This document shows, in pieces, positions 24,067-47,995 of a stretch of DNA of 62,695 bases. The position numbers were made by a program, and so were the translations under genes. Positions within the stretch are counted from its first letter, which is position 1, and the number at the start of each line of letters is the position of its first letter. This DNA is from a candidate division WOR-1 bacterium RIFCSPHIGHO2_01_FULL_53_15 (lineage in GTDB: Bacteria > Margulisbacteria > WOR-1 > O2-12-FULL-45-9 > XYB2-FULL-48-7), in NCBI GenBank assembly GCA_001772335.1, contig METM01000027.1:21776-84470 (forward strand), given 5' to 3'. A model generated the notes under the pieces. That model saw only the letters and a program-made list of their open reading frames with translations, was not told the origin of the DNA and did no database searches.

Positions 24067-24073
24067 AAAGCGG

Positions 24074-24890: not shown

Positions 24891-24938
24891 AATTCCGGCG
24901 CAAAACTGGCAGAAAAAGTGGGCTTCGGCTTTGGGCAT
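24891..24938 (-). pseudogene. orphan duplicate of the radA 5' end
   Basis: 24906-24934 matches radA 24028-24056 at 26/29 nt. It would read MPKAEAHFFCQFCAGI* versus radA MIASKPETHFLCQSCGNEF. It keeps the same short spacing to the preceding stop codon as radA itself: 6 nt here and 7 nt at radA. Confidence 0.6.
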
Positions 24939-24944
24939 ATCCTG

Positions 24945-25401: not shown

Positions 25402-25481
25402 CTCCAGTTTTGATTATATCATTCTCATCTCAAATATTCCATCTAACTGAAATTTCCCCGCTCCAACAAGGATATAAAGGC

Positions 25482-26436: not shown

Positions 26437-28947
<2,511 letters not shown>

Positions 28948-28953
28948 GAGCAC

Positions 28954-28982
28954 ATTATAGCGCCTCGACAAGCTCGGCGCAA
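28954..28982 (-). promoter_or_regulatory. sigma70-like promoter giving a probable leaderless clpC mRNA
   Basis: On the minus strand: TTGCGC-N17-TATAAT, followed by only 6 nt (GTGCTC) before the clpC ATG at 28947. Confidence 0.4.
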
Positions 28983-29036
28983 GCAACCCGGGCGCAAGTT
29001 TTCACCGGTTTGAGCCGATATTTACTATATAGAGCC

Positions 29037-30751: not shown

Positions 30752-30780
30752 TATTTATTCTTAAACCATCCTTTAACTGA

Positions 30781-30827
30781 TCCATCATCCCATACTCCGT
30801 CATATCACAATGGAGCGGCGTGATGGA
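30781..30827 (-). repeat. surE 3'-end remnant A
   Basis: 45/47 nt identical to surE 34978-35024. Flanks still read WLTGEV-ISITPLHCDMTEYGMMDQLK. Confidence 0.85.
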
Positions 30828-30850
30828 GATAACCTCACCCGTCAACCAGT

Positions 30851-32353: not shown

Positions 32354-32440
32354 CTATAGTAATGCCAAGCGCAACATTTTCAGCGTTTTTATAACTATTA
32401 TTCATTGCTTTTCTATCCCACCGGCCAACATTTTAACTGT

Positions 32441-32489
32441 TCTATATAATTATACTCCGTCATGTCACAATGGATAGGGCGCAACAGGA
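32441..32489 (-). repeat. surE 3'-end remnant B (degenerate)
   Basis: The central 23 nt match surE at 21/23. It reads ...PIHCDMTEYNYIEQLK. Confidence 0.65.
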
Positions 32490-33543: not shown

Positions 33544-33567
33544 TTATAATTTCCCCCTTTTAACTGA

Positions 33568-33598
33568 TCCATCATCGCATACTCCGTCATATCGCAAT
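33568..33598 (-). repeat. surE 3'-end remnant C
   Basis: 31/31 nt identical to surE 34978-35008. It reads CDMTEYAMMDQLKGGNYK*, and its TGA overlaps the next ATG. Confidence 0.85.
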
Positions 33599-33605
33599 CG
33601 GCACC

Positions 33606-34208
33606 TTATGCTTTCCTTCTCACCTCTGATAATGCGCGGTCAATAGGTTCAATAAAAAGCGCAAGATTATTGAACGCATCCATGATGTTCTCTGCAAATG
33701 TCCCTTTTCTAAGTATTTCTATCCATTCATCTGGGGACTGCTTTAATTCATAGTAAAAAATAAAATCATTATCGCTTTCAATTTTAATGCCTTTAAAACT
33801 ATTTTTTGCTTTTTCTGCAGCTAAATTAAAGGTTTCAGCGAATTTTGCGGGTTTATCTATTTTTGTCCTAATCTTCTCTGACCATATCCCGGCATTTGGA
33901 TGTTCATCGGCCGTCCCCATTAACCCATCCAAACTAATTTTGCCAACCCAAAGCGATACATGATCCCATTTATCTGTCCCAATTTTCCATGATTTTTTGC
34001 ATATTCCGACTTCGCTGTAGTTAGAATAAAACATTGGGGCTTCAAACTGTTTCTTGTCCCACCATTCACTTTCGATCAGTCTTGCTTTAACTTCATTCTG
34101 CAGACATGAAGCCATATTCCCTTCAATATCATTTACGCAATTAATTAATTTTGCAGTGTCCCCCCAATTTTCCAGCAGAAACGTCTCATGTTCTTTCGTT
34201 TTCTTCAT
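33606..34208 (-). CDS. hypothetical protein
   Basis: 200-aa ORF overlapping the preceding nuclease-like gene by 23 nt. No motif recognised. Confidence 0.45.
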   Translation of the reverse strand: MKKTKEHETFLLENWGDTAKLINCVNDIEGNMASCLQNEVKARLIESEWWDKKQFEAPMFYSNYSEVGICKKSWKIGTDKWDHVSLWVGKISLDGLMGTADEHPNAGIWSEKIRTKIDKPAKFAETFNLAAEKAKNSFKGIKIESDNDFIFYYELKQSPDEWIEILRKGTFAENIMDAFNNLALFIEPIDRALSEVRRKA

Positions 34209-34947
34209 CTCTGTCCTCCTTTATGCTTTTATTGATCCTAATGATATTATTTTCGATACATTCCTTATACTGTTCCGCCACCCATTTAGTTTTTTCTGCC
34301 TCAGCCATACGCGCAAAATCGTTTAGGCAGCGAACCATGGTATCCCACCCGACCCATGAAAACATCGTTCCCTCAACAACATCGGTAGCATTCTCCTTCG
34401 ACAAGAGAAATCCCCATCTACGTTTTTCATTGATGCCAAATGACTCGGCTCTTTTTATCAAATCCACTTCTTCCCTTTTAAGCTGTTCTTTTGTGGGTTT
34501 CATGCCGACCTTGTTTTCGATATGTATAATAAATCTATTCATTGTTTTTCTGATAATCTCGATATCTATCCTTGATTCATCCCCTGAAACTTCTTTCTTA
34601 ACACAGAAATCGGGCCCGTCAAGTATTTCCACGGGCAACCTTTTTTCCCTAATGAAAATACTAAAGAACAGGTCTTTTTGCGCATGAGTTTCTGTTGGGT
34701 CTAACAACCAAGCGAGAAATTTACTGTGTTTCATCTCATCATATGTAAAACCAAGAATATCTAATATGTTGATTTCTTCGGCATTCTTCCTTTGTTTTTC
34801 CCGGACTCCTTTAAGCATCTCTATAAATTGATTAATATATTTTTCATTTTCCGCTAATAACGATGAATAATATTTATCTTCAAGCTCAACAAACGAAGAC
34901 AATGTTCTTTTAAAGCGGCTTACTAATTGCAATGCGGTTTCAGGCAT
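34186..34947 (-). CDS. PD-(D/E)xK nuclease superfamily protein
   Basis: HSKFLAWLLDP ... ESRIDIEI ... FIIHIENKV is the D...E.K arrangement seen in stand-alone PD-(D/E)xK families. The ATG overlaps the surE TAA (TAATG). Confidence 0.55.
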   Translation of the reverse strand: MPETALQLVSRFKRTLSSFVELEDKYYSSLLAENEKYINQFIEMLKGVREKQRKNAEEINILDILGFTYDEMKHSKFLAWLLDPTETHAQKDLFFSIFIREKRLPVEILDGPDFCVKKEVSGDESRIDIEIIRKTMNRFIIHIENKVGMKPTKEQLKREEVDLIKRAESFGINEKRRWGFLLSKENATDVVEGTMFSWVGWDTMVRCLNDFARMAEAEKTKWVAEQYKECIENNIIRINKSIKEDRDEENERT

Positions 34948-35711
34948 TATTTGCTTTTATACCATTCTTTGATTTGTTCCATCATCGCATACTCCGTCAT
35001 ATCGCAATGGAGCGGCGTGATGGAAACATAACCTTGATTGATCGCATCAATATCACTATCCTGCTCGCCTTCCAGGTCAATAACCTCACCAGACAGCCAG
35101 TAATAAATCCGGCCGTGAGGATCGGTCCGCTTGTCGAATTTCTCGATAAAGGCTCGCTTGCTCTGCCGCGTAATCTTAACGCCTTTTACCTTTGACTTCA
35201 CCACCGCTGGAACATTGACATTAAGCAGTATCCCTTTCGGTAAACCTTTTTTAATGACCATTAAGGCTATCTTGCGAGCAAATTGGGCGGCAAAAGTATA
35301 ATCGGGCTTAGTAAATGTCCCCAGGGAGATCGCCATTGAAGGAATACCAAGGATAACGCCTTCCGTCGCACCCGATACTGTCCCCGAATAAAGGACGCTG
35401 AAGCCGGTATTGGGGCCGAGATTGATCCCGGAGATGACGAGGTCAGGTTTTTGCTTGAGGATCGCCCGGACCGCTAGCTTAACGCAATCGGCCGGCGTGC
35501 CAGTAGTTGAGTAAATATTTTTGTCCAACTGGTTGACCCGGAGAGGATCAGAGAGGGTGATCGCGTGACCGACCGCGCTCCGTTCGCTGTCGGGGGCGAC
35601 GATCGTGACATCCCCTATTCCCTTAACCGCTTTGTAGAGCGCCTGGATCCCGGCAGCGCTGATGCCGTCATCGTTAGTTAGAAGTATGCGCGGCTTACGC
35701 TTCCTAATCAT
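34947..35711 (-). CDS. surE: 5'/3'-nucleotidase SurE
   Basis: ILLTNDDGI..AGI, SGINLG.N and GYVSITPL motifs. Confidence 0.92.
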   Translation of the reverse strand: MIRKRKPRILLTNDDGISAAGIQALYKAVKGIGDVTIVAPDSERSAVGHAITLSDPLRVNQLDKNIYSTTGTPADCVKLAVRAILKQKPDLVISGINLGPNTGFSVLYSGTVSGATEGVILGIPSMAISLGTFTKPDYTFAAQFARKIALMVIKKGLPKGILLNVNVPAVVKSKVKGVKITRQSKRAFIEKFDKRTDPHGRIYYWLSGEVIDLEGEQDSDIDAINQGYVSITPLHCDMTEYAMMEQIKEWYKSK

Positions 35712-35752: not shown

Positions 35753-36169
35753 TTAGCGTTCGCCATTCTGGGCCTCGAGATAGACCTGCCGCCAGGCTTC
35801 CCGATCGATCGCCTCCTGCTCGAATTCATCCGTGGTTTTGACTGGATATAGAAGTGAATTCAATTCCCAGAGCTCTTCCGAGGTAAAGCTTGCCAGCCCT
35901 TTCCCCTGATAATATTCCCGCCACCGCGTCAGCTTCGGCTTGTCCCGCGGCGCCCGTCCATCGATCAAAAGCTCGACCTCTTCGCAACGGTTGAGGAATT
36001 TATTCGCTTTCCAGCGCTCCTTTTCGTCCAGATAAAAAAGGACCCAGCCTGTTTCGGGATCGATCGTCCATTTTTCGATCTTCAATTCCATTAAAAGCGC
36101 CTGGACAAAACCATCCTTTGGAATATCACCTAATTTGACTATCGCTTCAATAGTCTCGTCTTCCATCAT
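35753..36169 (-). CDS. hypothetical protein
   Basis: 138-aa ORF overlapping the upstream gene by 4 nt. No motif recognised. Confidence 0.45.
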   Translation of the reverse strand: MMEDETIEAIVKLGDIPKDGFVQALLMELKIEKWTIDPETGWVLFYLDEKERWKANKFLNRCEEVELLIDGRAPRDKPKLTRWREYYQGKGLASFTSEELWELNSLLYPVKTTDEFEQEAIDREAWRQVYLEAQNGER

Positions 36170-36381
36170 TCAACCTCCGCCCCGCATTGGGCGCATTTGA
36201 GCGTTGAGGAGATAATGTCCAGGTCCGGAGAGCCGCCGGAGAGAACCAGCCCCGATCTCCCTTTTGAGATCGACACTTCTTCCCGATAATTCGCCATCCC
36301 CTCATTGATGAACGAACTGCTCCCGCACGCGCAGGTATAAGTTTCGTTTTCTTCTTTTTGTTTAACTTTTTTCTTTGCCAT
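36166..36381 (-). CDS. small Cys4 zinc-ribbon protein
   Basis: MAKKKVKQKEENETYTCACG...(42 aa)...CAQCGAEVE. The internal ATG 36381 overlaps the ClpX-like 3' end by 20 nt. Confidence 0.4.
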   Translation of the reverse strand: MAKKKVKQKEENETYTCACGSSSFINEGMANYREEVSISKGRSGLVLSGGSPDLDIISSTLKCAQCGAEVE

Positions 36382-37396
36382 TGTTATTTGCCTCCTGTTT
36401 ACCAATATCGAACATCCGGTCCTCAAAAAACCGCCTGACCAGCGGGCCGACACAGCGCCCGCCCATTGCCTCGTGCGCTTTTGAAGCGGTGACGATCAAG
36501 TGAATTATCTCGGTATAGACGCCGGCTTCCTCGCCCGATATGGGAACATAGAAATTATACTCCTCCACTTCTTGCCTGATAAGCTGCTTGACCGCTTCCC
36601 CGTCAAGCGGCTCCAGGCGGATAATATTGCCGAGCCGATTGGCAAATTCCGGGATAAAGCCGTAGCGGACCAGGTCTTTATTATTTATTTCCTCTTTTTC
36701 TGCCAAACGGCCAAACGCCCCGCCAAAGATAAAGAGCACATTGCTGAAGTTAAACTTTTCCCGGTCATACTCCGTGTGGTCCGGCTCATAATAAACCTCC
36801 CCGCCGTCAATAATAGGGAGTAAATCTTGCTGGACGCCGCTGCCGGCAAAATCATCATCGCACCCCCAGCAGTTTCTGATCTTATCGATCTCGTCAATAA
36901 AGACGATCGCCCATTGAGCCTGTCGCCTTTGCTCTTTAGCCGAGGCCCGCAGCAGATCAACGATCTGTTCCGCGTGCATCCCGCCGCGGTAGCCCCGCTG
37001 GGTAAAATTAGTCGCATCAAGCTTTAGGTAAGGGACTTCGGCAATATCGGCCAGCGCCTTGGCCAGCATCGTCTTGCCGCAGCCGGACGGGCCGATCAGC
37101 AGCGCGTTCGTCTTGGGCAGCTGTTTCCCTTCTCGGGCCAACGCATAACGCTTGAGATGCTGGTAAAGGATGACCGACAAACTTTTTTTGGCCTCCGCCT
37201 GCCCCAGGACAGTTTTATTTAGCTCCTCGCAGATCTTTGACGGCGGGATGACAGGGTCATCAGCAAAAAGCTTCTCCTGCCTGGTGAGATTTTCCCGCCG
37301 ACCGCCCGCCGGCTCCTTTTCCGGCGCCACCAGCCCGTCAAACGCCCTGGCGATATCTTCTGCCGACAATAACTCTTTTTCCGACATTTTAAACAC
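36362..37396 (-). CDS. ClpX-like AAA+ ATPase lacking the N-terminal zinc-binding domain and the IGF-loop region
   Basis: L...V.GQ..AKK.LSV..Y.H.KR, Walker A IGPSGCGKTMLAKALA, pore-loop GYRGG, FIDEIDKI, GVQQDLLPIIDGG and GFIPEF.NRL all parallel ClpX. There are no N-terminal Cys residues and only a short segment where the IGF loop would sit. Confidence 0.7.
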   Translation of the reverse strand: MFKMSEKELLSAEDIARAFDGLVAPEKEPAGGRRENLTRQEKLFADDPVIPPSKICEELNKTVLGQAEAKKSLSVILYQHLKRYALAREGKQLPKTNALLIGPSGCGKTMLAKALADIAEVPYLKLDATNFTQRGYRGGMHAEQIVDLLRASAKEQRRQAQWAIVFIDEIDKIRNCWGCDDDFAGSGVQQDLLPIIDGGEVYYEPDHTEYDREKFNFSNVLFIFGGAFGRLAEKEEINNKDLVRYGFIPEFANRLGNIIRLEPLDGEAVKQLIRQEVEEYNFYVPISGEEAGVYTEIIHLIVTASKAHEAMGGRCVGPLVRRFFEDRMFDIGKQEANNNGKEKS

Positions 37397-37406
37397 CTCC
37401 GGCTAT

Positions 37407-37432
37407 ATTATAAAGGGAGCACAGTGACATTA
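37407..37432 (-). promoter_or_regulatory. conserved promoter-like element P2
   Basis: Minus strand: TAATGTCACTGT-GCTCCCTT-TATAAT, then a leader with GGAGG before the ClpX-like ATG. The plus strand shows the near-palindrome TGACATTATGTGTCA. Confidence 0.55.
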
Positions 37433-37521
37433 TGTGTCATGGTCAAGCAGATGCGCTTTAGGCAGATAGCGAACTCGGGCCCTGGCCGTTTCCAGATCGC
37501 TGATATATTCGTGGACTACTT

Positions 37522-37788
37522 TTACCACGCCCAGCCGCCCAGCTCCCGGAGGTCTTTTAGCGCCGGGCCTTTCAGGAACGAAAAAAGAAGAACTTTCTTG
37601 TGCTGGAAGGCAAACCCTTTTAAGGCGTAGGTCATCCCAAGTAAATAATCCTTGATCCGCCTCGCCTCCTCTTTGTTGACCGCTTGCTCCAGTGAAACGA
37701 GGATCTTGCCCGCCTTGCGGTATTTAATCGCCGCCTTTTTCCCCTCGTCATAATCCTTCGGACAATAGATCCTTGATATTACCGGCAT
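37522..37788 (-). CDS. hypothetical protein
   Basis: 88-aa ORF overlapping the upstream gene by 10 nt. Confidence 0.35.
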   Translation of the reverse strand: MPVISRIYCPKDYDEGKKAAIKYRKAGKILVSLEQAVNKEEARRIKDYLLGMTYALKGFAFQHKKVLLFSFLKGPALKDLRELGGWAW

Positions 37789-38633
37789 ATTTCCCCTCCT
37801 TTTTTCTTTTTCCCCGGCGGATCAAAAAGCTCCCAGAGTTGCCGGGGATCATTTAATGAGATCAGCCATTTTCCGCTTCTCATGTTTTTTAATATTTCGA
37901 AGACAACTTTTTGCGGCCGCTTGGACCTGTCCCTCTCCCAGTAGAGCCGGCAGAGGTATTGCACCAGAGGGGCGCAGCTCGCTACCTCCCGGGAGAGCTC
38001 GGCGCCGTTTTCCGTTTCCAGCGCGTTGACGGTAATAATAACAGCGGCATTATATTCTTCGGCCAGCCGCTTGATCTCTTTAACTGCCTTTTGGAGAAGT
38101 CCGGAGCGAAGCGCGGCACGATCACCTTGTTCGGGATAGTATTCGTAGATATAATCGATAGAGTCAATTATCACCAGCCAGGCCGGGATCTTTCTGGCAT
38201 GTTTCTCAACAGGGTCCATCGCCCTGACCTTTTCGGCCGGTTCTTCGTAAGCATATTTCTGGAATAGCAGTTCCATCTCGCTTGGTCTGGCCTCATCTAT
38301 CTCCTCACAGGAAACGCCTTGCACCGGTTCGATATAAAGGGGCGCTTTGGCGCCCGCGCCTGACAGACGATTGGCGATATTTGCCGGCCTTGATGAGGTC
38401 AAATAGAGCGTTTTGATGTTATTTTTGACCGCGCAAAACAGGGCGGCAGAGACGCAGAAGGCGGTTTTACCGGCCGCGTGCGGAGCAGAAACCGCCATAA
38501 TCTCCCCCGGCTCCATGCCGCCGCTCGCCTGGCTAATTAAACGCGCTCCGGTAAATATCGACTCTTTCTTACGCGCTTTTTCGATCTTTTCGGCAGCCAG
38601 TATCTCTTTTATTTTCATAGCGGGCGCCTCCAT
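37779..38633 (-). CDS. RecA-fold ATPase resembling the DnaB helicase C-terminal domain
   Basis: GGMEPGEIMAVSAPHAAGKTAFCVSAAL (Walker A) and VIIDSIDYI (Walker B-like). There is no DnaB N-terminal domain. Confidence 0.55.
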   Translation of the reverse strand: MEAPAMKIKEILAAEKIEKARKKESIFTGARLISQASGGMEPGEIMAVSAPHAAGKTAFCVSAALFCAVKNNIKTLYLTSSRPANIANRLSGAGAKAPLYIEPVQGVSCEEIDEARPSEMELLFQKYAYEEPAEKVRAMDPVEKHARKIPAWLVIIDSIDYIYEYYPEQGDRAALRSGLLQKAVKEIKRLAEEYNAAVIITVNALETENGAELSREVASCAPLVQYLCRLYWERDRSKRPQKVVFEILKNMRSGKWLISLNDPRQLWELFDPPGKKKKGGEICR

Positions 38634-38639
38634 ATGCTA

Positions 38640-38665
38640 TTTATACCATGGGCGGTATGACATTA
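38640..38665 (-). promoter_or_regulatory. conserved promoter-like element P3 (leaderless layout)
   Basis: Minus strand: TAATGTCATACC-GCCCATGG-TATAAA, then 6 nt before the ATG at 38633. Confidence 0.6.
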
Positions 38666-38671
38666 ATTGTC

Positions 38672-39418
38672 TTAGCGGTTCAAGATAGTTTTTGCCAGAG
38701 CAAGAGTGGGTTTTTTACCGGCGAGGGAAGCGTAGGCGGCGACCCTGATCAGGGCGCCCTCAAGCGCCCTGATGTTTGTAGTAATCCTTTTTACCAGATA
38801 AGCAAGCACTGCGGCGGGGACTTTATAATTTCCCAGTTTTGCTTTATTTTTTAAGATAGCAAGCCGCGTCTTAATTTCCGGCTGTTTGATCTTAACAATA
38901 GTCCCATGCTTAATAACCGGCAACTGGCACAACTTTTGGCTAAATATCGTGCCAGGCGGCCGGTCGCTCGTGATCACTATCTGTTTGCCCAATTTATACA
39001 ATTCGCTCAAAATGCCGATCAGCTCGCCCGCAGTCCGCTCCTTATGCCGCACAAATTGAAGATCGTCCAAAAGGAAGATGTCAGGGGCGCAATACTTCTT
39101 TCGGAAGCTATTATATTTGCCCAGCCGGAAAGCTTTAACAAGATCGCTGACGAATCTTTCCGTTGACACATAAGCGACTTTGCGCGGCGGCCTCTTATTT
39201 AAAATATAATTACCGATGGCCCACATTAAATGCGTTCTCCCCAACCCTTCCCCTCCGGTAATAAATAACGGGTTGTGCCGCTTCTCCAGCCCCCTGGCGA
39301 CATCAAGCGCCGCTTTAAAAGTGACGCGATTGGACGCGCCAACAACAAACGAGCTAAAAGCATATCTTTTGTAACGCCCATCCTTTTTCAGGTAAATACT
39401 ATTATCAAAGCTTTTCAC
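38672..39418 (-). CDS. DnaA domain-III-only (Hda-like) AAA+ protein with Walker-A Lys replaced by Arg
   Basis: FSSFVVGASN..A...A, NPLFITGGEGLGRTHL, LLDDLQF, ITSDRPP and the box VII/VIII-like NIRALEGALIRV. It ends where DnaA domain IV would begin. Confidence 0.7.
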   Translation of the reverse strand: MKSFDNSIYLKKDGRYKRYAFSSFVVGASNRVTFKAALDVARGLEKRHNPLFITGGEGLGRTHLMWAIGNYILNKRPPRKVAYVSTERFVSDLVKAFRLGKYNSFRKKYCAPDIFLLDDLQFVRHKERTAGELIGILSELYKLGKQIVITSDRPPGTIFSQKLCQLPVIKHGTIVKIKQPEIKTRLAILKNKAKLGNYKVPAAVLAYLVKRITTNIRALEGALIRVAAYASLAGKKPTLALAKTILNR

Positions 39419-39442
39419 GATCGCCTCATTTTCTTGCCCGCA

Positions 39443-39655
39443 TCAGTTTTTAGCTTTTATCTGCGCGATGAGCTCTCTTGCCTCACCTACGCGCTGCTTG
39501 TTATCCAGATACGCATTTCTCATCGTCTTCGCCAGACCAATCAAACCGTTTAAGCTCTCGCTCATGGATCTGTCCAGGGCATCGATATTGTTATCGATCC
39601 GGGAAAGATTTTCCAACAGAATCTCTGTCCGGTCATTTCCTCGCTTTTTTCGCAT
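39443..39655 (-). CDS. small coiled-coil hypothetical protein
   Basis: 70-aa ORF downstream of element P4. Confidence 0.35.
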   Translation of the reverse strand: MRKKRGNDRTEILLENLSRIDNNIDALDRSMSESLNGLIGLAKTMRNAYLDNKQRVGEARELIAQIKAKN

Positions 39656-39779
39656 GGCACACCCCCTCCACCCTATATAAACGTTTTATTTTTCCAAAAA
39701 ACTAAACTGGCGCCACTTTTTCGCGGCTTTATGCTTAATTTATTTTTCAAACTGGCGGCATCAGAATAATATATACCAT

Positions 39780-39805
39780 GGGCGGTGTGACATTAATGGG
39801 CAGGG
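39780..39805 (-). promoter_or_regulatory. conserved promoter-like element P4
   Basis: Minus strand: TAATGTCACACC-GCCCATGG-TATATA. It shares a 27-nt block (26/27 identical) with P3. Confidence 0.55.
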
Positions 39806-39815
39806 GATGCGGTAT

Positions 39816-40628
39816 TTATTTCTTTATTTTATCGCCAAGCCACTGGAGATCTTTATCGCTCCACCAGCGGCAAGCAAAATGGGGAACGACAAATATACGC
39901 GGCCTTAGAGCAGCGAAGCTAAGCATCGTGCAACCCTTACCGTTATGTTTATTGATCCTAATTTCCTGGCATTCATTTTCTTTCCCTTCGGCAAACACAG
40001 AAATATATTCTTTGGTATGCAATCTGCCAAAGCACAACACAAAATCAATATGCTCCCTGTTCTTATCGAACATCTCCTTCAACCGCCCAAATCTATTACT
40101 TTTGCACCATTTGTAATATTCTTCCTTGTCTTTCATGCCGGTTACTGTTTTTTCGGCCTCGCTAAAAGTAGTTGTTGTTTTTGGAAAATCAAGGGGATAT
40201 AGATTTACCTGAAAAGTATCCCCATTTTGGCATTTAGCGGTAAATAATTTTTTGGAAATATATTCCTGCCAATACTCTTTCCAGTTATTGCTATTTTCTA
40301 TCTGAGCAATCACCTTTGCCATTTTTTGGCATGTCCGCCAGCTTGTATATTTACCGTTGCGTTCGTCATTATATTTCAATTTGAAGTTATCATCCCATTC
40401 CATAGGCACTTGATCACGACTGAATCTTTCGTTTTCACTCCGGATTTGATCGACTAATCCTTTGTGCCTGTTATCCTTTGTCTTTTCATCAACTTTTCTG
40501 CCGTATTCAACACCGCTAAACCAATATTTGCCCCCGGGATTGCCCACCATGCCGGAATAGCTTAACGCCCATTCCTCAAATTCATTATTTACATGATATT
40601 CATGAGAATTTGTGTCATCATTATTCAT
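39816..40628 (-). CDS. hypothetical protein
   Basis: 270-aa ORF whose ATG overlaps the stop of the HEAT-like gene (ATGA). No motif recognised. Confidence 0.45.
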   Translation of the reverse strand: MNNDDTNSHEYHVNNEFEEWALSYSGMVGNPGGKYWFSGVEYGRKVDEKTKDNRHKGLVDQIRSENERFSRDQVPMEWDDNFKLKYNDERNGKYTSWRTCQKMAKVIAQIENSNNWKEYWQEYISKKLFTAKCQNGDTFQVNLYPLDFPKTTTTFSEAEKTVTGMKDKEEYYKWCKSNRFGRLKEMFDKNREHIDFVLCFGRLHTKEYISVFAEGKENECQEIRINKHNGKGCTMLSFAALRPRIFVVPHFACRWWSDKDLQWLGDKIKK

Positions 40629-40870
40629 TGATTTTTTTCTCCTTGCTTAAATTGTATCATACCAGCCGCCTCCCTCACCAGATAATGCTCATCAAGAGCC
40701 AGGCGGCGTAAAACCTTAAGCGGGCATTTCTTATGCTTCGCCACTTTTTTTCGCACCGGAAAGAACTCGTCGCGACTAAGCCGAGCTAAGATGCCGGCGG
40801 TTGCGGACGGATTGGCGGCGGCCGCTTCCCTGACCGGCCATGACTCATCACGGGAAAAGCGCTCTAACAT
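40625..40870 (-). CDS. HEAT/leucine-rich-variant-like repeat protein
   Basis: Repeated D(E)..PVR..AA motifs (DESWPVREAAA, DEFFPVRKKVA, DEHYLVREAA). Confidence 0.45.
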   Translation of the reverse strand: MLERFSRDESWPVREAAAANPSATAGILARLSRDEFFPVRKKVAKHKKCPLKVLRRLALDEHYLVREAAGMIQFKQGEKNQ

Positions 40871-41034
40871 ATCCAGCGGGATCCGCCTGTCCCTGATCGC
40901 TTGAGCCCTTTGGCTTTGGCCCAGGCCTTTGTCCGCTGCGTCTTCCCCTGACCTGTACCACCCCAGAGAAACGGCGTCACGTATATCCCCTCGCTATTTT
41001 TCTGCCATAAGACATCCAGCGCTTTTTCGATCAT
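40864..41034 (-). CDS. 56-aa P-loop fragment (not in the ORF track; possible frameshifted N-terminus of the HEAT-like gene)
   Basis: GGAGG-N7-ATG, then MIEKALDVLWQKNSEGIYVTPFLWGGTGQGKTQ..., i.e. beta-strand plus Walker A, terminating 56 codons in. The HEAT frame is open across its 3' half. Confidence 0.3.
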   Translation of the reverse strand: MIEKALDVLWQKNSEGIYVTPFLWGGTGQGKTQRTKAWAKAKGLKRSGTGGSRWIC

Positions 41035-41118
41035 GTTGATTGCCTCCGGAAGTTATTATAAATGAGCCACCCTGACAGAAAGTGGCAGGGGGTTGTGGTA
41101 TAATAAATATCAAGCAAC

Positions 41119-41826
41119 ATGATCGAAGCTGAGCTTAGCCACAAAATAGATAACCGCTCCGAAGACGTATTAACCTCTACGGTTTTTGGCCTATTAAAGT
41201 ATTCTTTTGCTAAAGATCTATTGATCTCTTTCTTAGGCAAAGCCCAATCTGTTTCCGACCCCAGCTCATATTTTTCACATTTGATCGGGGATCACCTTTT
41301 ATTTGCCGGTGATTATAGATTCGTCTTTTGGAAATATTTTGATCGTTATGGCGAACCGGACCTAATAATCGAAGGGCCCGATTATGTCATTATAATCGAA
41401 GTTAAATATTTATCCGGGCTGTCGGGCGAATTGCAGCTGGAAAATTATCATAATTTAATGGAGAATAAATATAAGAAGAAAGCCAATAAATATTTGATTT
41501 TCTTAACCGCGGACTTATCCATACCCGGGTTACCCGCCTCAACAATAAATTTACTTAAAGACAAGAATTTTTTCTGGCTATCATGGTATGAACTAAACAA
41601 AGCGATATTATCTATTTCTATGACTTGCGGAGGCACATTAAAAGAGATATCGGCTGATCTGCTTAGATTGCTGAAAGAAAGCAGAAATATCGTAGAATTT
41701 GAAGGATTCAGCAAATATAATATTATGCCTAGGCAGAACTATCTTTTCTGGAAACAGAGGGAAAGTATTTTCAGCCAATATCGTAAAGCTGAATTGCCAG
41801 ACCCAATATTTTTTAAGGGGGAGTAA
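41119..41826 (+). CDS. PD-(D/E)xK-like nuclease-fold protein
   Basis: GEPDLIIEG.DYVIIIEVKY gives a D...(E)VK core. Preceded by TGTGGTATAAT (extended -10). Confidence 0.45.
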   Translation: MIEAELSHKIDNRSEDVLTSTVFGLLKYSFAKDLLISFLGKAQSVSDPSSYFSHLIGDHLLFAGDYRFVFWKYFDRYGEPDLIIEGPDYVIIIEVKYLSGLSGELQLENYHNLMENKYKKKANKYLIFLTADLSIPGLPASTINLLKDKNFFWLSWYELNKAILSISMTCGGTLKEISADLLRLLKESRNIVEFEGFSKYNIMPRQNYLFWKQRESIFSQYRKAELPDPIFFKGE

Positions 41827-41830
41827 TTAT

Positions 41831-42418
41831 ATGGATGACAAAGGCAATAATGTGATTGATTTAATCAGGCAGATGGAAAAACTATATATTGAGATCTCAA
41901 GGCTGATTAAATGTTTTGATAAAAATATCCAAAAGAGAGGATATCTCCTCCCTTCAAGCTCCTCATCTGTAATAAAAGATATTTCACAATCATTAAATGC
42001 GCCAGAAAATTGGCTCCCAATGTGGTTATATCGCAACTACCAAAACAACGCCAACAAAGAAGTATTATCCTTGAATATCGCCCTAGATTATCCTGAGTTC
42101 CCTGAAAGGATAAATGAGCCATTAGTCCTTGTCGCGAAATTTAGCGGTAAAAAAGTTGATCTTGATCATGCGTGGTATCCATGGGATATATATTTTCATT
42201 TCAGGCCATTAACAAAGCGGTACAATAAAATATACCTGCTTAAGGATTTTAACCTTAATGATAATGATACTTTGGAAGAGTTATCCGACTGGTCAAAGGA
42301 AGAAAAAGAAAATCTGACAAATCACTTTAAAGCCATTAGTTTTATTGCCGCACCCCTGATGGAGATGAGCGATGAAAAGAACATTATCAAATTCATTGAT
42401 CCCATTTTTAATCAATAA
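41831..42418 (+). CDS. hypothetical protein
   Basis: The internal ATG 41831 lies directly after the upstream stop. 195 aa, no motif recognised. Confidence 0.45.
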   Translation: MDDKGNNVIDLIRQMEKLYIEISRLIKCFDKNIQKRGYLLPSSSSSVIKDISQSLNAPENWLPMWLYRNYQNNANKEVLSLNIALDYPEFPERINEPLVLVAKFSGKKVDLDHAWYPWDIYFHFRPLTKRYNKIYLLKDFNLNDNDTLEELSDWSKEEKENLTNHFKAISFIAAPLMEMSDEKNIIKFIDPIFNQ

Positions 42419-42426
42419 TATTTAAT

Positions 42427-43410
42427 ATGGAACGCCACATACTATTCAGGATTTATGATATCGACCGGATGCTCAAGCGGAAAGAATATCCGAACTGCAC
42501 AAAGCTAAAAGAATATTTCCTTGAACATCACGGCTTAACCCTCTCGATCCGGACGATCATGCGCGACATTGACACTATGCGGCTTGACCTCGGCGCTCCT
42601 ATCGAGTATGACCGCGAAAAGAACGGCTATTACTATGAAAATGAGAGTTTCTCGCTCCCGGCCGTCCGCCTGACCGAAGGGGAACTGATCTCGATCTTCC
42701 TGGCCGAAGAGATCTTGAAGAAATATAAAAATACCCCGTTTGAAGCGACGATCAAGCGCGCGTTTGAGAAAGTCGAATTGCTCCTGCCACAGAGCGTCTC
42801 GATCGATTTCAATGAGATCGGCCAGGCCTACTCTTTTGATATCCGGCAGACCCGCCCCCTGGACAAGCAGTCGGCCAAGGTTTTTGACACGCTGGCCAAG
42901 GCGATCGGAGATAAAATGAGTGTGGAGATCAACTATTACGCCATCAGCCGCAACGCGACGCAAAAACGGGTCATCGATCCTTATCACCTGCGCCATACCC
43001 AGGGCGCCTGGTATTTGGTCGGTTATTGCCATCTCAGGAAAGAGGTGCGGACATTCGCGGTCAACCAGATCAGATCTATAAAAACGTTGAAAGAGCCTTT
43101 CACCGTCCGGGCGGACTTCTCGCCGGAAAAATTCTTTGAGCACTCCTGGGGGATATCGGAAGGTGGGCCTTTGACAAAAGTCGTGGTTAAAATCGACAAA
43201 GAGATCGCTCGCTGGTTTGAAGACCGCAAGCTCCACTCCAGCCAGCAAACCAAAGAAAACAAAGACGGCTCCCTCACCCTAACCTTCCGCGTCGCCGGGA
43301 CGAATGAGATCAAGCGGTGGATATTGAGCCAGGGAAGATATGCTAAAGTGGTGGAGCCGAAAGAATTGGAGCAGGAAATTAGGAGAGAGGTAATGGAGAT
43401 TTTGAAATAG
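42427..43410 (+). CDS. WYL-domain transcriptional regulator (wHTH-WYL-WCX architecture)
   Basis: N-terminal HTH region, then RVIDPYHLRHTQGAWYLVGYCHLRKEVRTFAVNQIRSI, the classic WYL core, and a C-terminal extension. Confidence 0.85.
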   Translation: MERHILFRIYDIDRMLKRKEYPNCTKLKEYFLEHHGLTLSIRTIMRDIDTMRLDLGAPIEYDREKNGYYYENESFSLPAVRLTEGELISIFLAEEILKKYKNTPFEATIKRAFEKVELLLPQSVSIDFNEIGQAYSFDIRQTRPLDKQSAKVFDTLAKAIGDKMSVEINYYAISRNATQKRVIDPYHLRHTQGAWYLVGYCHLRKEVRTFAVNQIRSIKTLKEPFTVRADFSPEKFFEHSWGISEGGPLTKVVVKIDKEIARWFEDRKLHSSQQTKENKDGSLTLTFRVAGTNEIKRWILSQGRYAKVVEPKELEQEIRREVMEILK

Positions 43411-43428
43411 GGAGGGGATGATTTAATT

Positions 43429-44250
43429 ATGTTGGAAAAATATTGGTATCCCAAAATTCAGAAGTATTTAGAAAACGAAGGCTATGTTTGTCATGGGTTT
43501 TACAAAAATGGGAAGAAGCTCGATTTTATTGATACGGGGATAGGCAATGCTCGCATTGATGTTCTGGGCATAAAAAGGGCATCTTTAATCGCATCAAATT
43601 TTCAACTCGAAACAATTGGAGTTGAAGTAAAACATATCGGTAAAATTACCATTAAAAATATAAGACAAGCCGCAAGTTATGCTCACCTTTGCACAAGATG
43701 CTATTTGGCGGCTCCAGTAGAAAGATTCTCCGAAAATGATAAGAAAAATGCAGCTCAAGCAGGGGTTGGATTAATCCGCTTAAAAAGAAAAAGAGTTGAT
43801 GTTATTGTTGAATCTAATAAGTTTCAACCAGACATCGATTTAATAAATCAGTTTCTATGGTTCTTAAATGTGGTTTTTTGCCCAATATGCAGAACATATA
43901 AGCATCGCTACGACCCAAAGGAACTTAAATATAATGGTGGATCTTGGAGAAATGATATATTTTCAAAAAAGAATAAATGGATATATATTTGCAACGAATG
44001 CAATATTAAGCTTTCAAAGAATACCAGACAATATCTAATGGCCCGGGAACTGGAACAGATTAGAAATCGATTTGAGGGAATTGAACAAAAACTTGCTAAA
44101 ACAAAAAGACATGTAGATAAAATAGACAACTATTATTACCATAAATATTTGAAGCTGAAGGGCAAAGGAGAGCGAAGCATCAAAAGGCTTGACAATTACT
44201 ATTATTCAAAGCATGCAAATCTAAACAGGGCATTGAAGAAGATTAAATAA
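43429..44250 (+). CDS. PD-(D/E)xK-like domain + Cys4 zinc ribbon + coiled-coil protein
   Basis: ARIDVLGI ... IGVEVKH core, CPICRTY...CNECN ribbon, and a C-terminal repeat (DNYYY.KY/H). Confidence 0.45.
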   Translation: MLEKYWYPKIQKYLENEGYVCHGFYKNGKKLDFIDTGIGNARIDVLGIKRASLIASNFQLETIGVEVKHIGKITIKNIRQAASYAHLCTRCYLAAPVERFSENDKKNAAQAGVGLIRLKRKRVDVIVESNKFQPDIDLINQFLWFLNVVFCPICRTYKHRYDPKELKYNGGSWRNDIFSKKNKWIYICNECNIKLSKNTRQYLMARELEQIRNRFEGIEQKLAKTKRHVDKIDNYYYHKYLKLKGKGERSIKRLDNYYYSKHANLNRALKKIK

Positions 44251-44299
44251 TTTAACATCCCCCCGTCCCGAGTGGCAGATTGACAAAGAAGGGATAATC

Positions 44300-44818
44300 A
44301 TGAAAGAACATGAAGTAATAGCAAAGACTTTAGTTTACTTAATAAAAAAAGAACAAGCAGAGATTAATTCAGTCGCGACCCCTAAAAAACATGAAAAATA
44401 CATTAAAAAAGCCATCAATAATGCCGGTCTGACAAAAAATCAAATAAATTTGATAACTTTTAAACAGGTAGGGGCGGATATAATTGCTGTTCTAAAATTT
44501 AAATCCGGACGACCACAAAAACGCATACAAATCGAAGCAAAAGGCGGAAATGTATATTACGGCATCTATACAGCATTGGGTCAGTTCATCTGTTTAAAAG
44601 AATCGCCTAGCACATATCATTGGTTTGCGTTCGCTTTCCCACTTCGTTGGCGAGAGAAAATAAGGAAATGGCTTTTAACTCCCAAGGAAAGGATAAAACC
44701 GGTAATTCGAGATATTATAAATCTATACACCAAAAACGGACAAGGCTTATGGTTTTATTTTATAAATGAAAAAACAGGGAAAGCAATAAAAGAAACATGG
44801 GAAACGACCTTGCGATAA
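44300..44818 (+). CDS. PD-(D/E)xK-like nuclease-fold protein
   Basis: GADIIAV ... RIQIEAKGG core. Confidence 0.4.
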   Translation: MKEHEVIAKTLVYLIKKEQAEINSVATPKKHEKYIKKAINNAGLTKNQINLITFKQVGADIIAVLKFKSGRPQKRIQIEAKGGNVYYGIYTALGQFICLKESPSTYHWFAFAFPLRWREKIRKWLLTPKERIKPVIRDIINLYTKNGQGLWFYFINEKTGKAIKETWETTLR

Positions 44819-44915
44819 CGAAGAAACCATGGAATGGCCAAATTGAATAACTCATAAAAAAATAATATCATAACCTTTTTTGTGTATTTGGCAAAAAGCC
44901 CCCACCCCTGTCCCG

Positions 44916-44941
44916 TAGTGTCATACCCCTCGTGCCATAAT
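44916..44941 (+). promoter_or_regulatory. conserved promoter-like element P5
   Basis: TAGTGTCATACC-CCTCGTGC-CATAAT, 10 nt before the ATG at 44952. Confidence 0.6.
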
Positions 44942-44951
44942 TACCGGTAGA

Positions 44952-45395
44952 ATGCCGTTTAAAACTTTAACCGATCTATATTTTGACAACAAAATTCAGG
45001 TCATCCCGCCCCGGGCGCTGACTTTCTTCGGCTACCTTAATGAGCTTGAAAAGACGCTGAAGACACCGGGGCTGATCGATCTGGATGAGGCCGACTTAAT
45101 GACCATCCTGTTCGGCGCCAGCCGGGCGGCTATTGTTGTGATCGAGTCCCCGCTTAAAGAGATAACCGGAAAATTGCGCCGCACTCTGCGGCAGGTCAAA
45201 GCCAAAAAAGCGGACGGCGCAATCTTCCATGTCATCGGCGATGAAAACATGACGCTATCAGATGTCAACGATGTCGCTGAAACAATTTATACCGTTCTCA
45301 ATGACAAGGCCAATATTATTTTTGGCGCGGCGATCGATGAAGAGATGAAAAGAACCGTCAGGGTGCTGATAATTCTGGTCAATCGGGATGAATGA
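44952..45395 (+). CDS. FtsZ C-terminal-domain-only homologue (T7-loop region onward; no GTP-binding domain)
   Basis: TPGLIDLDEADLMTIL parallels FtsZ TPGLINLDFADVKTIM. MTLSDVNDVAETIYTVLNDKANIIFGAAIDEEMKRTVRVLIILV parallels FtsZ LSLYEVQEAADIV...NMIFGSVINENLKDEIVVTVIATG. Confidence 0.7.
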   Translation: MPFKTLTDLYFDNKIQVIPPRALTFFGYLNELEKTLKTPGLIDLDEADLMTILFGASRAAIVVIESPLKEITGKLRRTLRQVKAKKADGAIFHVIGDENMTLSDVNDVAETIYTVLNDKANIIFGAAIDEEMKRTVRVLIILVNRDE

Positions 45396-45509: not shown

Positions 45510-45535
45510 TAGTGTCATACCCCTCCTGCCATAAT
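45510..45535 (+). promoter_or_regulatory. conserved promoter-like element P6
   Basis: TAGTGTCATACC-CCTCCTGC-CATAAT, 12 nt before the ATG at 45548. Confidence 0.6.
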
Positions 45536-45547: not shown

Positions 45548-45835
45548 ATGTTGACTTTCCTTAAACAATTATTCTGCAAGCATAAATGGGCGGCGCGCAA
45601 AGACATGCCCGTCGCGGCCTTGATCAGATCACGGGGTAGAACAAAGAGGTGCAGTAAATGTCAAAAAGAGTGGACCGACCCGTCGCTTAGGGGCATCCCC
45701 ATAAGTTTATCCTACCGAATAGTCGAATTCTGGGAAATAATGTATTGGGACCGGAAAATACTTCGCTTAAGCATGAGCGACGCTTACAAAGCATCGAAAA
45801 AGCTGAACGCGCTCACTTTACAGGAAAGGAGCTGA
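45548..45835 (+). CDS. small hypothetical protein (Cys/Lys-rich)
   Basis: The internal ATG immediately after element P6 (MLTFLKQLFCKHKW...CSKCQKEW) gives 95 aa. Confidence 0.35.
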   Translation: MLTFLKQLFCKHKWAARKDMPVAALIRSRGRTKRCSKCQKEWTDPSLRGIPISLSYRIVEFWEIMYWDRKILRLSMSDAYKASKKLNALTLQERS

Positions 45836-45844
45836 TCTGCCCCA

Positions 45845-45870
45845 TAATGTCATCCCCCTAGTGCCATACT
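45845..45870 (+). promoter_or_regulatory. conserved promoter-like element P7 (leaderless layout)
   Basis: TAATGTCATCCC-CCTAGTGC-CATACT, 6 nt before the ATG at 45877. Confidence 0.55.
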
Positions 45871-47440: not shown

Positions 47441-47492
47441 ATAAATACTAAATGCTAAATACTAAACAAGACCAAAATACTAATGACCAAAA
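47441..47492 (+). repeat. heptamer-based (CTAAATA-type) repeat block, 5' flank and N-terminus of four-helix-bundle gene 1
   Basis: ATAAATACTAAATGCTAAATACTAAACAAGACCAAAATACTAATGACCAAA. A direct copy lies at 47856-47907. Confidence 0.7.
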
Positions 47493-47850
47493 AACAAAAA
47501 GACGCTATGATCTTGAGGAAAGAACAATGTTGTTTGCAAGGGAGACCAATGCTTTCGTTCGGCGACTGCCAAAAGATGTAACGGTATCTGAGAACGGCAG
47601 ACAATTAGTTCGCTCGGCTGGTTCCGTGGCCGCCAACTACATTGAAGCCAACGAAGCGCTAAGCAAGAAGGATTTTATAATGAGGATCAAGATCTGCCGA
47701 AAGGAAGCGAAAGAAAGTCGCCTTTGGCTCAATCTTCTCCAGCCGCCAATTCAGGAGATGACTTATAAGGACCGCCTTCTGGATGAGGCAACGCAACTCA
47801 TGAAAATATTTGGGGCGATACTGACAAAGACGGGAAACACAAAGTTTTAA
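47452..47850 (+). CDS. four-helix-bundle protein (23S rRNA intervening-sequence protein family)
   Basis: YDLEERT..FA......RLPK......QL.RSAGSVAANYIEANEA.SKKDF..R.KICRKEAKES..WL.LL is the family signature. Confidence 0.85.
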   Translation: MLNTKQDQNTNDQKTKRRYDLEERTMLFARETNAFVRRLPKDVTVSENGRQLVRSAGSVAANYIEANEALSKKDFIMRIKICRKEAKESRLWLNLLQPPIQEMTYKDRLLDEATQLMKIFGAILTKTGNTKF

Positions 47851-47907: not shown

Positions 47908-47950
47908 TTTCAAAATAATGAAGACTCGTTTCGGTCATTCAGATTTTGTG

Positions 47951-47995
47951 TTATTTGAATTTGTTTAGTATTTAGAAATTAGCATTTAGTATTTC
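47951..47995 (-). repeat. inverted orphan copy of a four-helix-bundle gene 5' end
   Basis: 47951-47975 is 25/25 identical to 60322-60346, the 5' coding end of gene copy 2. No ORF follows. Confidence 0.7.

Follow-up and report, generated by a model that had tools for sequence, protein, structure and literature searches.

Three regulators of the WYL family, CapW, DriD, and PafBC, respond to single-stranded DNA (ssDNA; PMC11662680, PMC9186387, PMC11804915), CapW as a repressor that leaves its palindromic site (PMC11662680), and DriD and PafBC as activators (PMC9186387, PMC11804915). In Caulobacter, DriD turns on DidA much as the SOS response turns on SulA, a damage- or ssDNA-responsive regulator in each case switching on a blocker of division (PMC9186387, PMC4211646); mycobacterial PafBC acts at promoters of consensus tGTCgg(N10)tA(N3)T, which have a "-26 element" and no -35 box (PMC8635444); and the CapW and BrxR defence islands, variable and rich in nuclease and abortive-infection (Abi) genes, carry a winged helix-turn-helix (wHTH)-WYL-WCX regulator with palindromes at its own and neighboring promoters (PMC9122601, PMC11662680). 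Here we describe an island in which a regulator of this last architecture stands among genes for truncated look-alikes of FtsZ, SepF, DnaA, DnaB, and ClpX. The island lies in a 62,695-nucleotide stretch (the window) of contig METM01000027.1, positions 21,776 to 84,470 of the forward strand, from the candidate division WOR-1 bacterium RIFCSPHIGHO2_01_FULL_53_15 (assembly GCA_001772335.1). WOR-1, or Saganbacteria, is the sister group of Cyanobacteria.

We favor, tentatively and with somewhat less than even confidence, the reading that the look-alike genes constitute one island regulon under the wHTH-WYL-WCX regulator, and that their products are binding-competent but catalytically crippled fragments which arrest replication initiation and division. 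The genes concerned, together with two small genes that accompany them, lie in the window as follows; the loci compared with it are designated by L numbers and individual proteins by P numbers.

36362-37387, minus strand: ClpX-like, a 341-residue AAA+ unfoldase homologue with no zinc-binding domain and no IGF loop
37522-37788, minus strand: SepF-like, an 88-residue SepF core whose start overlaps the DnaB_C-like stop by 10 nucleotides
37779-38618 or 37779-38633, minus strand: DnaB_C-like, 279 or 284 residues, the C-terminal RecA-fold domain only
38672-39418, minus strand: DnaA-like, 248 residues, AAA+ domain III and lid only, without domains I, II, and IV
39443-39655, minus strand: cc70, a 70-residue predicted coiled coil, first gene of the cc70/DnaA-like unit
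42427-43410, plus strand: the wHTH-WYL-WCX protein, proposed regulator of the island promoters
44952-45395, plus strand: FtsZ_C-like, 147 residues comprising helix H7, the T7 loop, and the C-terminal domain, without the GTP-binding domain or the C-terminal tail
45557-45835, plus strand: p92, a small protein encoded directly downstream of the FtsZ_C-like gene

The regulator matches Pfam WYL (PF13280, 6e-22) and WCX (PF25583, 1.9e-19); its best match among solved structures is PafBC (2.6e-20), followed by DriD and CapW, and orthologues are found in L018 (87% identity), L011 (62%), L021 (61%), and L024 (57%). A repeated motif, TGTCAY-N11-TATAAT, has 5-6 matches in the window where 0.04-0.5 would be expected by chance. 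It is the downstream half of a palindrome, TGACA-N5-TGTCA, which lies 10-11 nucleotides upstream of a -10 box with no -35 box, and which, with up to two mismatches allowed, has 30 matches in the whole window as against 12.3 ± 3.5 expected. Within the island, palindrome sites precede the ClpX-like, DnaB_C-like/SepF-like, and cc70/DnaA-like units, the FtsZ_C-like gene, an open reading frame (ORF) of 68 codons, and the divergent WYL and p56 operons; p92 and a DUF4143 ATPase gene are preceded by copies consisting of the TGTCA half-site and -10 box alone.

37407-37439 (element 37407-37429), minus strand: promoter of the ClpX-like unit; perfect palindrome TGACA-N5-TGTCA, 11 nucleotides, TATAAT
38640-38672 (element 38640-38662), minus strand: promoter of the DnaB_C-like/SepF-like unit; palindrome with one mismatch, and TATAAA
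39771-39802 (element 39771-39792), minus strand: promoter of the cc70/DnaA-like unit; TGTCA half-site with a degenerate partner, -10 box TATATA
41055-41104, both strands: bidirectional promoter region; palindrome TGACA-GAAAG-TGGCA serving the WYL operon on the plus strand (TATAAT at 41099) and the p56/LRV/p270 operon on the minus strand
44909-44941 (element 44919-44941), plus strand: promoter of the FtsZ_C-like gene; the -10 box ends 11 nucleotides before the ATG
45513-45535, plus strand: promoter element upstream of p92
45838-45869, plus strand: promoter element upstream of the 68-residue ORF at 45877

The original prediction, made from the letters of the sequence, had placed each look-alike gene behind its own copy of the promoter element; this holds for the ClpX-like, DnaB_C-like, and FtsZ_C-like genes but not for the DnaA-like gene, whose copy precedes cc70. 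Because the -10 box of the FtsZ_C-like gene ends only 11 nucleotides before the ATG, its mRNA would be nearly leaderless, and because the listed ORF start of p92 (45497) lies upstream of the promoter element, we take the ATG at 45557 as the p92 start. The element is kept upstream of the FtsZ_C-like gene in L021 and L022 and can still be read in the translated N-terminal extension of P0137, and in L018 the site orthologous to the DnaB_C-like promoter is a perfect palindrome common to the divergent WYL and DnaB_C-like genes. In the whole set of loci compared, perfect palindromes are confined to those that bear a WYL gene, where they always lie just upstream of the WYL gene itself (L011, L018, L021/L022), of a PIF1-WYL helicase gene (L024), or of look-alike genes (ClpX-like in L018, DnaB_C-like in L024); the palindrome of the window WYL gene has one mismatch. 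In each locus with a WYL gene, that gene and the look-alike genes follow a TGACA-N5-TGTCA palindrome at the position of the missing -35 box. We infer that TGACA-N5-TGTCA is the putative operator of the island WYL regulator, at its own and at its target promoters, and since the element is palindromic, a homodimer is implied, as for DriD, CapW, and BrxR. The one common regulatory element and the recurrence of the genes as neighbors in other genomes bear out the earlier claim that the look-alikes form a coordinated set.

Compared with the systems described above, the spacing TGTCnn-N10/11-TAnnnT without a -35 box matches PafBC-type geometry (PMC8635444), and PafBC is also the best structure match; PafBC, however, is a heterodimer acting at a single -26 element, whereas the island element is palindromic, and both the lineage and the regulon content differ. 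The likeness to DriD lies in a regulator of the same family, a WYL-type promoter architecture, and an FtsZ fragment among the regulated genes. Unlike the island proteins, DidA and SulA are not homologous to their own targets; the island's putative effectors, at least five of them, are fragments of the target machines and would reach replication as well as division. Finally, the island resembles the CapW and BrxR islands in its regulator, palindromes, and nuclease- and Abi-rich surroundings, but its regulated genes match no catalogued defence system and encode homologues of cell-cycle proteins. Since the characterized WYL relatives respond to ssDNA, we predict by analogy that the regulon is induced when ssDNA accumulates, for example upon DNA damage or through phage or mobile-element activity.

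The same likeness to PafBC brings in a different explanation, that the regulon supplies not inhibitors but additional repair or replication-restart factors: a RadA/Sms-like or DnaB-like motor, a DnaA-like loader, and an unfoldase. The PafBC regulon consists mainly of DNA repair genes, RecA-fold and AAA+ proteins are common among repair factors, and the structural model of the DnaB_C-like protein fits Rad51 and its paralogues no less well than DnaB. We nevertheless regard this as decidedly unlikely: no part in repair is apparent for fragments of SepF and FtsZ, catalytic motifs have degenerated, RadA is already encoded next door (22696-24066), and the module lies among nuclease and Abi-type genes rather than in repair operons.

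Pfam and NCBIfam matches, together with structure-profile matches, confirm the four look-alikes first reported at these positions, those of DnaA, DnaB, ClpX, and FtsZ, with their truncations as described. The FtsZ_C-like protein matches Pfam FtsZ_C at 7e-15 and positions 202-322 of the 353 of TIGR00065, and aligns with residues 224-338 of M. jannaschii FtsZ, its GLIDLDEAD falling on GLINVDFAD, the T7 synergy loop. All six members of the family match Pfam FtsZ_C, and D48, the equivalent of the last T7-loop aspartate of FtsZ, is invariant throughout the family, down to 24% overall identity. The protein ends with the last strand of the globular domain (...VRVLIILVNRDE), so that the tail peptide which binds SepF, FtsA, or ZipA is absent. 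A protein labelled by NCBI as Candidatus Saganbacteria is 58% identical to it, and p92 is 57% identical to the product of the gene that follows the FtsZ_C-like gene in L021 and L022.

The SepF-like gene was missed in the original prediction. Its product matches Pfam SepF (PF04472) at 5.6e-6 and 27 bits, a score equal to the gathering score of 27; all six members of its family match SepF in Pfam, and a profile of the family picks up the core of B. subtilis SepF at 1.8e-5. The match to the core starts at residue 7-8, the N-terminal amphipathic membrane-targeting helix and the linker being absent. A single-sequence AlphaFold model, all helical and with a predicted local distance difference test (pLDDT) score of 57, is unusable as a test of the fold. 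As proteins of accessory or mobile origin proposed to block Z-ring assembly, the FtsZ and SepF fragments would resemble Kil, DicB, MciZ, T7 Gp0.4, and CbtA/CbeA, the last of which pairs an inhibitor with a bundling factor (PMC5371832); unlike the known small FtsZ inhibitors, which are short peptides unrelated to FtsZ, the island candidates are half of FtsZ and the core of SepF.

The DnaA-like protein matches Pfam Bac_DnaA at 2.7e-46 and TIGR00362 (DnaA) at 5e-74, covering model positions 105-336 of 437 with 250 bits, below the equivalog cut-off of 343.9; it aligns with residues 113-338 of B. subtilis DnaA, that is, domain III and the lid. Three features set it apart from DnaA: i) the Walker A motif reads GEGLGRTHL, a lysine-to-arginine change (GLGRT) relative to GxxGxGKT that is also present in P0002 and L030, with GCGRT in L011; ii) box VII, RSRFEWGL in DnaA and the seat of the arginine finger, is exchanged for CQLPVIKHGT (QKLCQLPVIKHGT), and the finger is likewise gone from the L011 and L030 proteins, i.e. 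from all three lineages; and iii) the chain ends five residues past the lid and thus has no domain IV, no match to PF08299 (Bac_DnaA_C) or PF11638 being found in Pfam. The L011 and L030 proteins, 47% and 42% identical to that of the window, have identical architecture, the same lysine-to-arginine change, the same loss of box VII, and the same truncation points. Between the window and its sister lineage L032, nonsynonymous (dN) and synonymous (dS) divergence of the gene are 0.074 and 0.337 (dN/dS 0.22); this, the sole gene so examined, is under purifying selection. With only about 45% identity to canonical DnaA, and no special closeness to Saganbacteria DnaA, the copy must be old. A canonical DnaA (P0029) is present in a different Saganbacteria metagenome-assembled genome (MAG).

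A DnaA-derived AAA+ domain without a DNA-binding domain recalls Hda, which acts on DnaA rather than on DNA. Hda needs an arginine finger and an N-terminal clamp-binding motif of pattern QL[SD]LF. The island protein, unlike Hda, lacks the finger, shows no QL[SD]LF-like motif on reading of its first 20 residues, and scores 250 bits against DnaA as compared with 60 for Hda (60.4 bits with TIGR03420, cut-off 194.8). As for helicase loaders of the DnaC/IstB kind, PF01695 (IstB_IS21) is matched with 46 bits, above the cut-off of 24.1, but over the common AAA+ core only, no N-terminal extension such as the DnaB-binding domain of those loaders is present, and all NCBIfam helicase-loader models score far under their cut-offs.

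Several further DnaA-related sequences were set aside. P0043, P0066, P0076, and P0085 carry GKT and RSRFEWGL and are thus pieces of an ordinary DnaA; P0045, on a long-read contig, comes from a dnaA gene that is split, an adjacent ORF of its own encoding Bac_DnaA_C; and P0013, considered as a host dnaA, is the canonical dnaA of another genome, in the context rpmH-dnaA-dnaN-recF-dciA (L036-L039). P0013 is among the closer full-length matches to the island protein (46% identity), and because a DciA gene follows rpmH-dnaA-dnaN-recF, its genome appears to use DciA and not a DnaC-type loader. The DnaA matches in the GenBank phage set are all on unannotated records, some of only 3-6 kb, and since their identity of about 40% is that of ordinary bacterial DnaA, they are uninformative as to phage origin. 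In L024, a 116-residue mini-DnaA (2261-2611) has lost Walker A and kept box VII (LRARLEAGL); it adjoins the DnaB_C-like/SepF-like pair, followed by genes for a PIF1-WYL helicase, a WYL-WCX protein, GIY-YIG, DUF2779, PDDEXK_4, and patatin, and is either a decaying copy or a still more reduced DnaA fragment.

For the DnaB_C-like protein, the ATG at 38618 (279 residues) is the likely start: it has a ribosome-binding site (RBS), GGAGG, 8 nucleotides before it, and homologues begin MKIKEIL. Pfam gives AAA_25 at 6e-9 and DnaB_C at 4e-6, just below the Pfam cut-off, and TIGR00665 gives 20 bits where the cut-off is 385, the N-terminal helical domain and linker of DnaB being absent. With the family profile, DnaB is the best solved-structure match (Taq DnaB, 1.3e-9), the alignment being placed at TGFxxLD...GKTAF, the start of the C-terminal domain; the window protein carries the DnaB signature TGxxDxD...GKTAF. 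In the structural model (pLDDT 78), a single N-terminal helix precedes a generic RecA core which Foldseek matches about equally to DnaB, Rad51, Twinkle, and KaiC. The identification as DnaB thus stands on sequence profiles and not on the fold, which does not discriminate. Module proteins are labelled "DnaB-like replicative helicase" and "DnaC-like helicase loader" by PHROG.

The family is rare: 13 clusters at 90% identity among 5.8 billion proteins, and three GTDB species representatives. In an exhaustive HMMER search of 1.84 billion representative proteins, six clusters of the family were found at E <= 1e-30; what follows outside the family is mostly proteins of 400-450 residues matched over about residues 150-440, as DnaB would be. 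Although GKT and Walker B are intact in the window protein, Walker A is degenerate in four of the 13 (P0123, P0124, P0131, and P0133, with GAT, EAT, DKK, or a deletion), and in three of the 13 the LSRE motif, the counterpart in the alignment of the arginine finger motif LRES of DnaB, no longer has its arginine. In its length of about 280 residues, its restriction to the RecA domain, and its AAA_25 match the protein resembles RepA of RSF1010; in contrast to RepA, Walker A and the arginine finger are not conserved in the family and there is a constant SepF-like partner.

The ClpX-like protein matches NF003745 (ClpX) from model position 56 at 7.9e-54 and 183 bits (cut-off 359), and among solved structures ClpX is matched best. 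The first 45 residues of the island protein contain no cysteine, which leaves it without a zinc-binding domain; when it is aligned with E. coli ClpX, chain residues 218-253 are skipped, only AEKEE being left there, and the IGF-loop segment is gone. Retained are Walker A (GPSGCGKT), Walker B (DEIDK), the pore loop (GYRG, as against GYVG), and the GFIPEF motif. In Saganbacteria locus L018, an orthologue with 73% identity adjoins the DnaB_C-like gene.

Taken together, the arginine for lysine and the lost arginine finger in three of three DnaA-like lineages, the degeneracy of the DnaB_C-like family, and the invariant T7-loop aspartate describe proteins with kept interaction surfaces and lost chemistry, which suggests binding proteins rather than enzymes.

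Gene-context look-ups and blastp comparison of loci show how far the module recurs. Each of the loci belongs to an island or integrative element of Saganbacteria or Margulisbacteria. In 12 lineages the DnaB_C-like gene has the SepF-like gene as its neighbor (the window, L011, L013, L014, L016, L020, L023, L024, L025, L026, L029, and L030), L018 alone having the DnaB_C-like without the SepF-like gene. A DnaA-like gene lies beside the pair in three lineages (the window, L011, and L030), and the L024 remnant occupies the same place. FtsZ_C-like genes occur in five lineages, namely the window, L011 (fused to TPR), L013, L021/L022, and the P0137 contig; they accompany the pair in the window, L011, and L013, and in L021/L022 stand only with a WYL gene and an AIPR abortive-infection gene. 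The ClpX-like gene, present in two lineages (the window and L018), is the least constant look-alike. What had been presented as a set of four is better described as a conserved core, the DnaB_C-like/SepF-like pair, with variable companions; subsets recur, but the exact four-gene combination is confined to this lineage. Neither Pfam, NCBIfam, PADLOC, nor PHROGs has a model describing the module, and full-text literature searches found no paper on such a module.

Could the look-alikes be nonfunctional relics, i.e. pseudogene fragments of duplicated housekeeping genes brought together by chance? Decay does occur, as the L024 DnaA remnant without Walker A attests, but the idea is scarcely credible: across at least 12 lineages, with identities of 25-70%, the ORFs remain intact and constant in length, their RBS and promoter elements are conserved, the DnaA-like gene has a dN/dS of 0.22, and the DnaA-like copy is old. 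The conservation data effectively refute it.

The two kinds of setting differ. Saganbacteria-type islands carry the WYL regulator, DUF2779, and assorted nucleases, with no recombinase, SSB, or primase; Margulisbacteria-type integrative elements carry serine or tyrosine recombinases, SSB, DUF2958, and primase, with no WYL gene. The latter invite the view that the module serves the replication or maintenance of an integrative element, the DnaB_C-like protein being a RecA-fold-only helicase as in RSF1010 RepA, the DnaA-like protein a loader or cofactor as in DnaC, the other genes accessory, and the Saganbacteria island a decayed copy. The pair does travel with serine/tyrosine recombinases, SSB, DUF2958, and DnaG-DUF5906 primase in L013, L014, L016, L025, and L030, the DnaA-like gene always adjoins the pair, GKT and Walker B are intact in the window protein, and the AAA_25 and IstB_IS21 matches and the PHROG helicase and loader labels point the same way. 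But several DnaB_C-like members have lost Walker A or the arginine finger; the DnaA-like protein lacks the DNA-binding domain, the arginine finger, and the Walker A lysine; a SepF homologue is always at hand and an FtsZ fragment often, neither of them replicative; the Saganbacteria islands are without recombinase, SSB, or primase; and the integrative elements already have a DUF5906 primase, which is taken to supply the helicase. Nor does the window show the signals of an origin: there is no DnaA-box cluster (15 matches, scattered, against 8.5 expected), and no iterons, tandem repeats, or Rfam matches were found in it. The original prediction had itself offered an odd replication module of a mobile element as its alternative; degenerate motifs, SepF and FtsZ partners, and missing origin repeats weaken that alternative, and we consider it unlikely.

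We return to a regulon of inhibitory fragments. Since, by analogy, DriD drives DidA and SOS drives SulA, such a regulon would arrest the cell cycle, and how it might do so can be sketched from the known biology of the parent proteins: i) the FtsZ fragment, with its T7-loop face kept and its GTP-binding face gone, would cap FtsZ filaments; ii) the SepF core, lacking the membrane anchor, would compete for the FtsZ tail and leave it unattached to the membrane; iii) the DnaA fragment, without normal ATP hydrolysis, arginine finger, or DNA binding, could end DnaA oligomers or hold DnaB; iv) the DnaB fragment could form mixed or dead-end rings; and v) the ClpX-like protein, without ClpP docking, might remodel its targets without degrading them. 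ClpX is known to inhibit FtsZ assembly independently of ClpP in B. subtilis. The net effect would be a reversible arrest of division and replication initiation, either a checkpoint upon damage or infection or an Abi-like dormancy, to the benefit of island or host. That this amounts to a new kind of brake, whereby an ssDNA-sensing WYL regulator releases self-derived dead fragments that poison host polymers and rings as a dormancy switch of Saganbacteria and Margulisbacteria elements, is a bolder proposition that we hold to be rather doubtful.

Several points weigh against even the more modest proposal. The protein-target interactions are drawn throughout from homology, and T7-loop capping and competition by the SepF core are extrapolations from textbook FtsZ and SepF biology. 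The complete set of four or five genes is found only in this lineage. Margulisbacteria elements have the pair without a WYL gene or palindrome, among SSB, primase, and recombinase genes, a context that would also fit a role in replication or establishment. And since their Walker motifs are intact, the window DnaB_C-like and ClpX-like proteins are possibly active enzymes.

As a WYL-controlled stress or defence regulon with a putative division inhibitor, the module has precedents; its effector principle may be new. Should the fragments act on host FtsZ, DnaA, and DnaB, a bacterial island would be using pieces of its targets as dominant-negative inhibitors. We know of no earlier case of this. WYL-controlled responses would then go beyond single division inhibitors, DidA for one, and shut down division and replication jointly, and the fragments would be naturally optimized candidate cappers of FtsZ and DnaA assemblies, useful as reagents. 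The operator and promoter grammar is a testable one for WYL regulators of a barely studied lineage. Even if the module proves to serve the replication of a mobile element, the constant pairing of a DnaB domain with a SepF homologue is new and unexplained.

The island coincides with a region of low G+C content, about 29.0-47.9 kb of the window (38-51% as against 55-64% in the flanks), in which no tRNA gene, recombinase, or Rfam match was found; a sigma-70 promoter and terminator scan added nothing. On its left lies a gene for a ClpB/ClpC-type Clp ATPase with a UVR motif (26437-28986), with radA farther upstream, and on its right a histidine-kinase gene (47998-50196). The best relatives of the island genes are in Saganbacteria MAGs; identity to isolate DeMMO3_43 is 87% for the WYL regulator, 73% for the ClpX-like protein, and 71% for SurE.

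The company kept by the Saganbacteria modules, genes for PD-(D/E)XK, Holliday-junction-resolvase-like, HD, AIPR, PLD, GIY-YIG, patatin, and STAND-like ATPase proteins, and a regulator of the BrxR/CapW type that is a hallmark of defence islands (PMC9122601), would suit a set of anti-phage decoys: fragments mimicking the hubs that phages attack (FtsZ, DnaA, DnaB, and ClpX), so that a phage inhibitor upon binding is soaked up or triggers the nuclease effectors. Such a function is very unlikely, however, given that none of the fragments is fused, or constantly linked, to an effector, that Margulisbacteria elements have the pair without defence genes, and that the PADLOC 2.0 models yield only weak generic AAA+ matches for the look-alike proteins (DolB at 2.4e-8, IetA, and mad8), with none for the DnaB_C-like, SepF-like, and FtsZ_C-like proteins. 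No relatives of these three proteins were found in IMG/VR, which is neutral for the decoy explanation.

Two further genes complete the ClpX-like unit.

36166-36381, minus strand: a 71-residue zinc-ribbon protein (CxC...CxxC), its start overlapping the ClpX-like end
35753-36169, minus strand: p138, 138 residues, the last gene of the unit before surE, its start overlapping the zinc-ribbon stop (ATGA)

The zinc-ribbon protein has no family match in Pfam, NCBIfam, or PHROG; a homologue (58% identity) is encoded in L011 between ClpP-like and TPR-FtsZ_C genes, the ClpP-like gene there standing in place of a ClpX-like gene and, by our reading, keeping the catalytic triad. For p138 we found neither a family match nor a solved-structure match; its C-terminal AIDREAWRQVY seems by eye to resemble a small L011 ORF. 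Homologues of cc70 follow the DnaB_C-like gene in L013, L014, L025, and L029 and precede the DnaA-like gene in L032, and cc70 matches no Pfam, NCBIfam, or PHROG family.

Other small genes accompany the module elsewhere. p118 (about 115-125 residues, motif YPPRGRVVY), absent from the window, is encoded in L014 (11022-11378), L023 (1184-1561), L024 (1917-2264), and L025 (2108-2464), following the DnaB_C-like/SepF-like pair or its coiled-coil gene at roughly the position of the FtsZ_C-like gene of L013. A protein of 337-358 residues without a Pfam match is inserted in the module of L011 (7597-8610) and L024 (3084-4160), the two being 40% identical. A 160-residue L014 ORF considered as Clp_N-like has no Pfam support.

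The DUF2779 protein (about 490-510 residues; window 29273-30751, L011 53-1561, L021 4642-6123, and L024 7560-9098) is 41-70% identical between loci and lies beside the WYL regulator in all four lineages with long enough contigs; it may be a fixed part of the Saganbacteria-type island rather than cargo. The surE gene also adjoins WYL, DnaB_C-like, and ClpX-like genes in Saganbacteria locus L018. In the window its last 25 or so codons (core CCATTGYGAYATGACGGAGTATG..GATGATGGA) recur three more times downstream, the coordinates being 30734-30850, 32429-32487, 33556-33614, and 34930-35110, each repeat just upstream of one or two genes: PDDEXK_4 and p200; two Endonuc_Holl genes; an AAA_14-DUF4143 ATPase; and DUF2779. 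This looks like a tandem accretion of cassettes of 1-1.6 kb at the surE 3′ end, yet there is no recombinase in the window.

At the right edge of the island, a gene of PF05635 (23S rRNA-intervening-sequence protein family; 47452-47850) stands between 61-nucleotide inverted repeats (47443-47503 and 47934-47994) made of TAAATAC heptads, and might represent a small unit that is mobile or invertible. Between radA and the Clp ATPase gene (26437-28986) there is a further, smaller region of low G+C content (45-50%; window 24000-26400), which holds a gene of the endonuclease/exonuclease/phosphatase family (25395-26408) and was probably inserted separately. The p270 protein (39816-40628, 270 residues) matches no family or solved structure; a homologue with 27% identity is encoded in L030 (1961-2767), divergently from the DnaA-like gene, and by eye the GxPGG and HF motifs of p270 seem reminiscent of proteins of the uracil-DNA-glycosylase fold.

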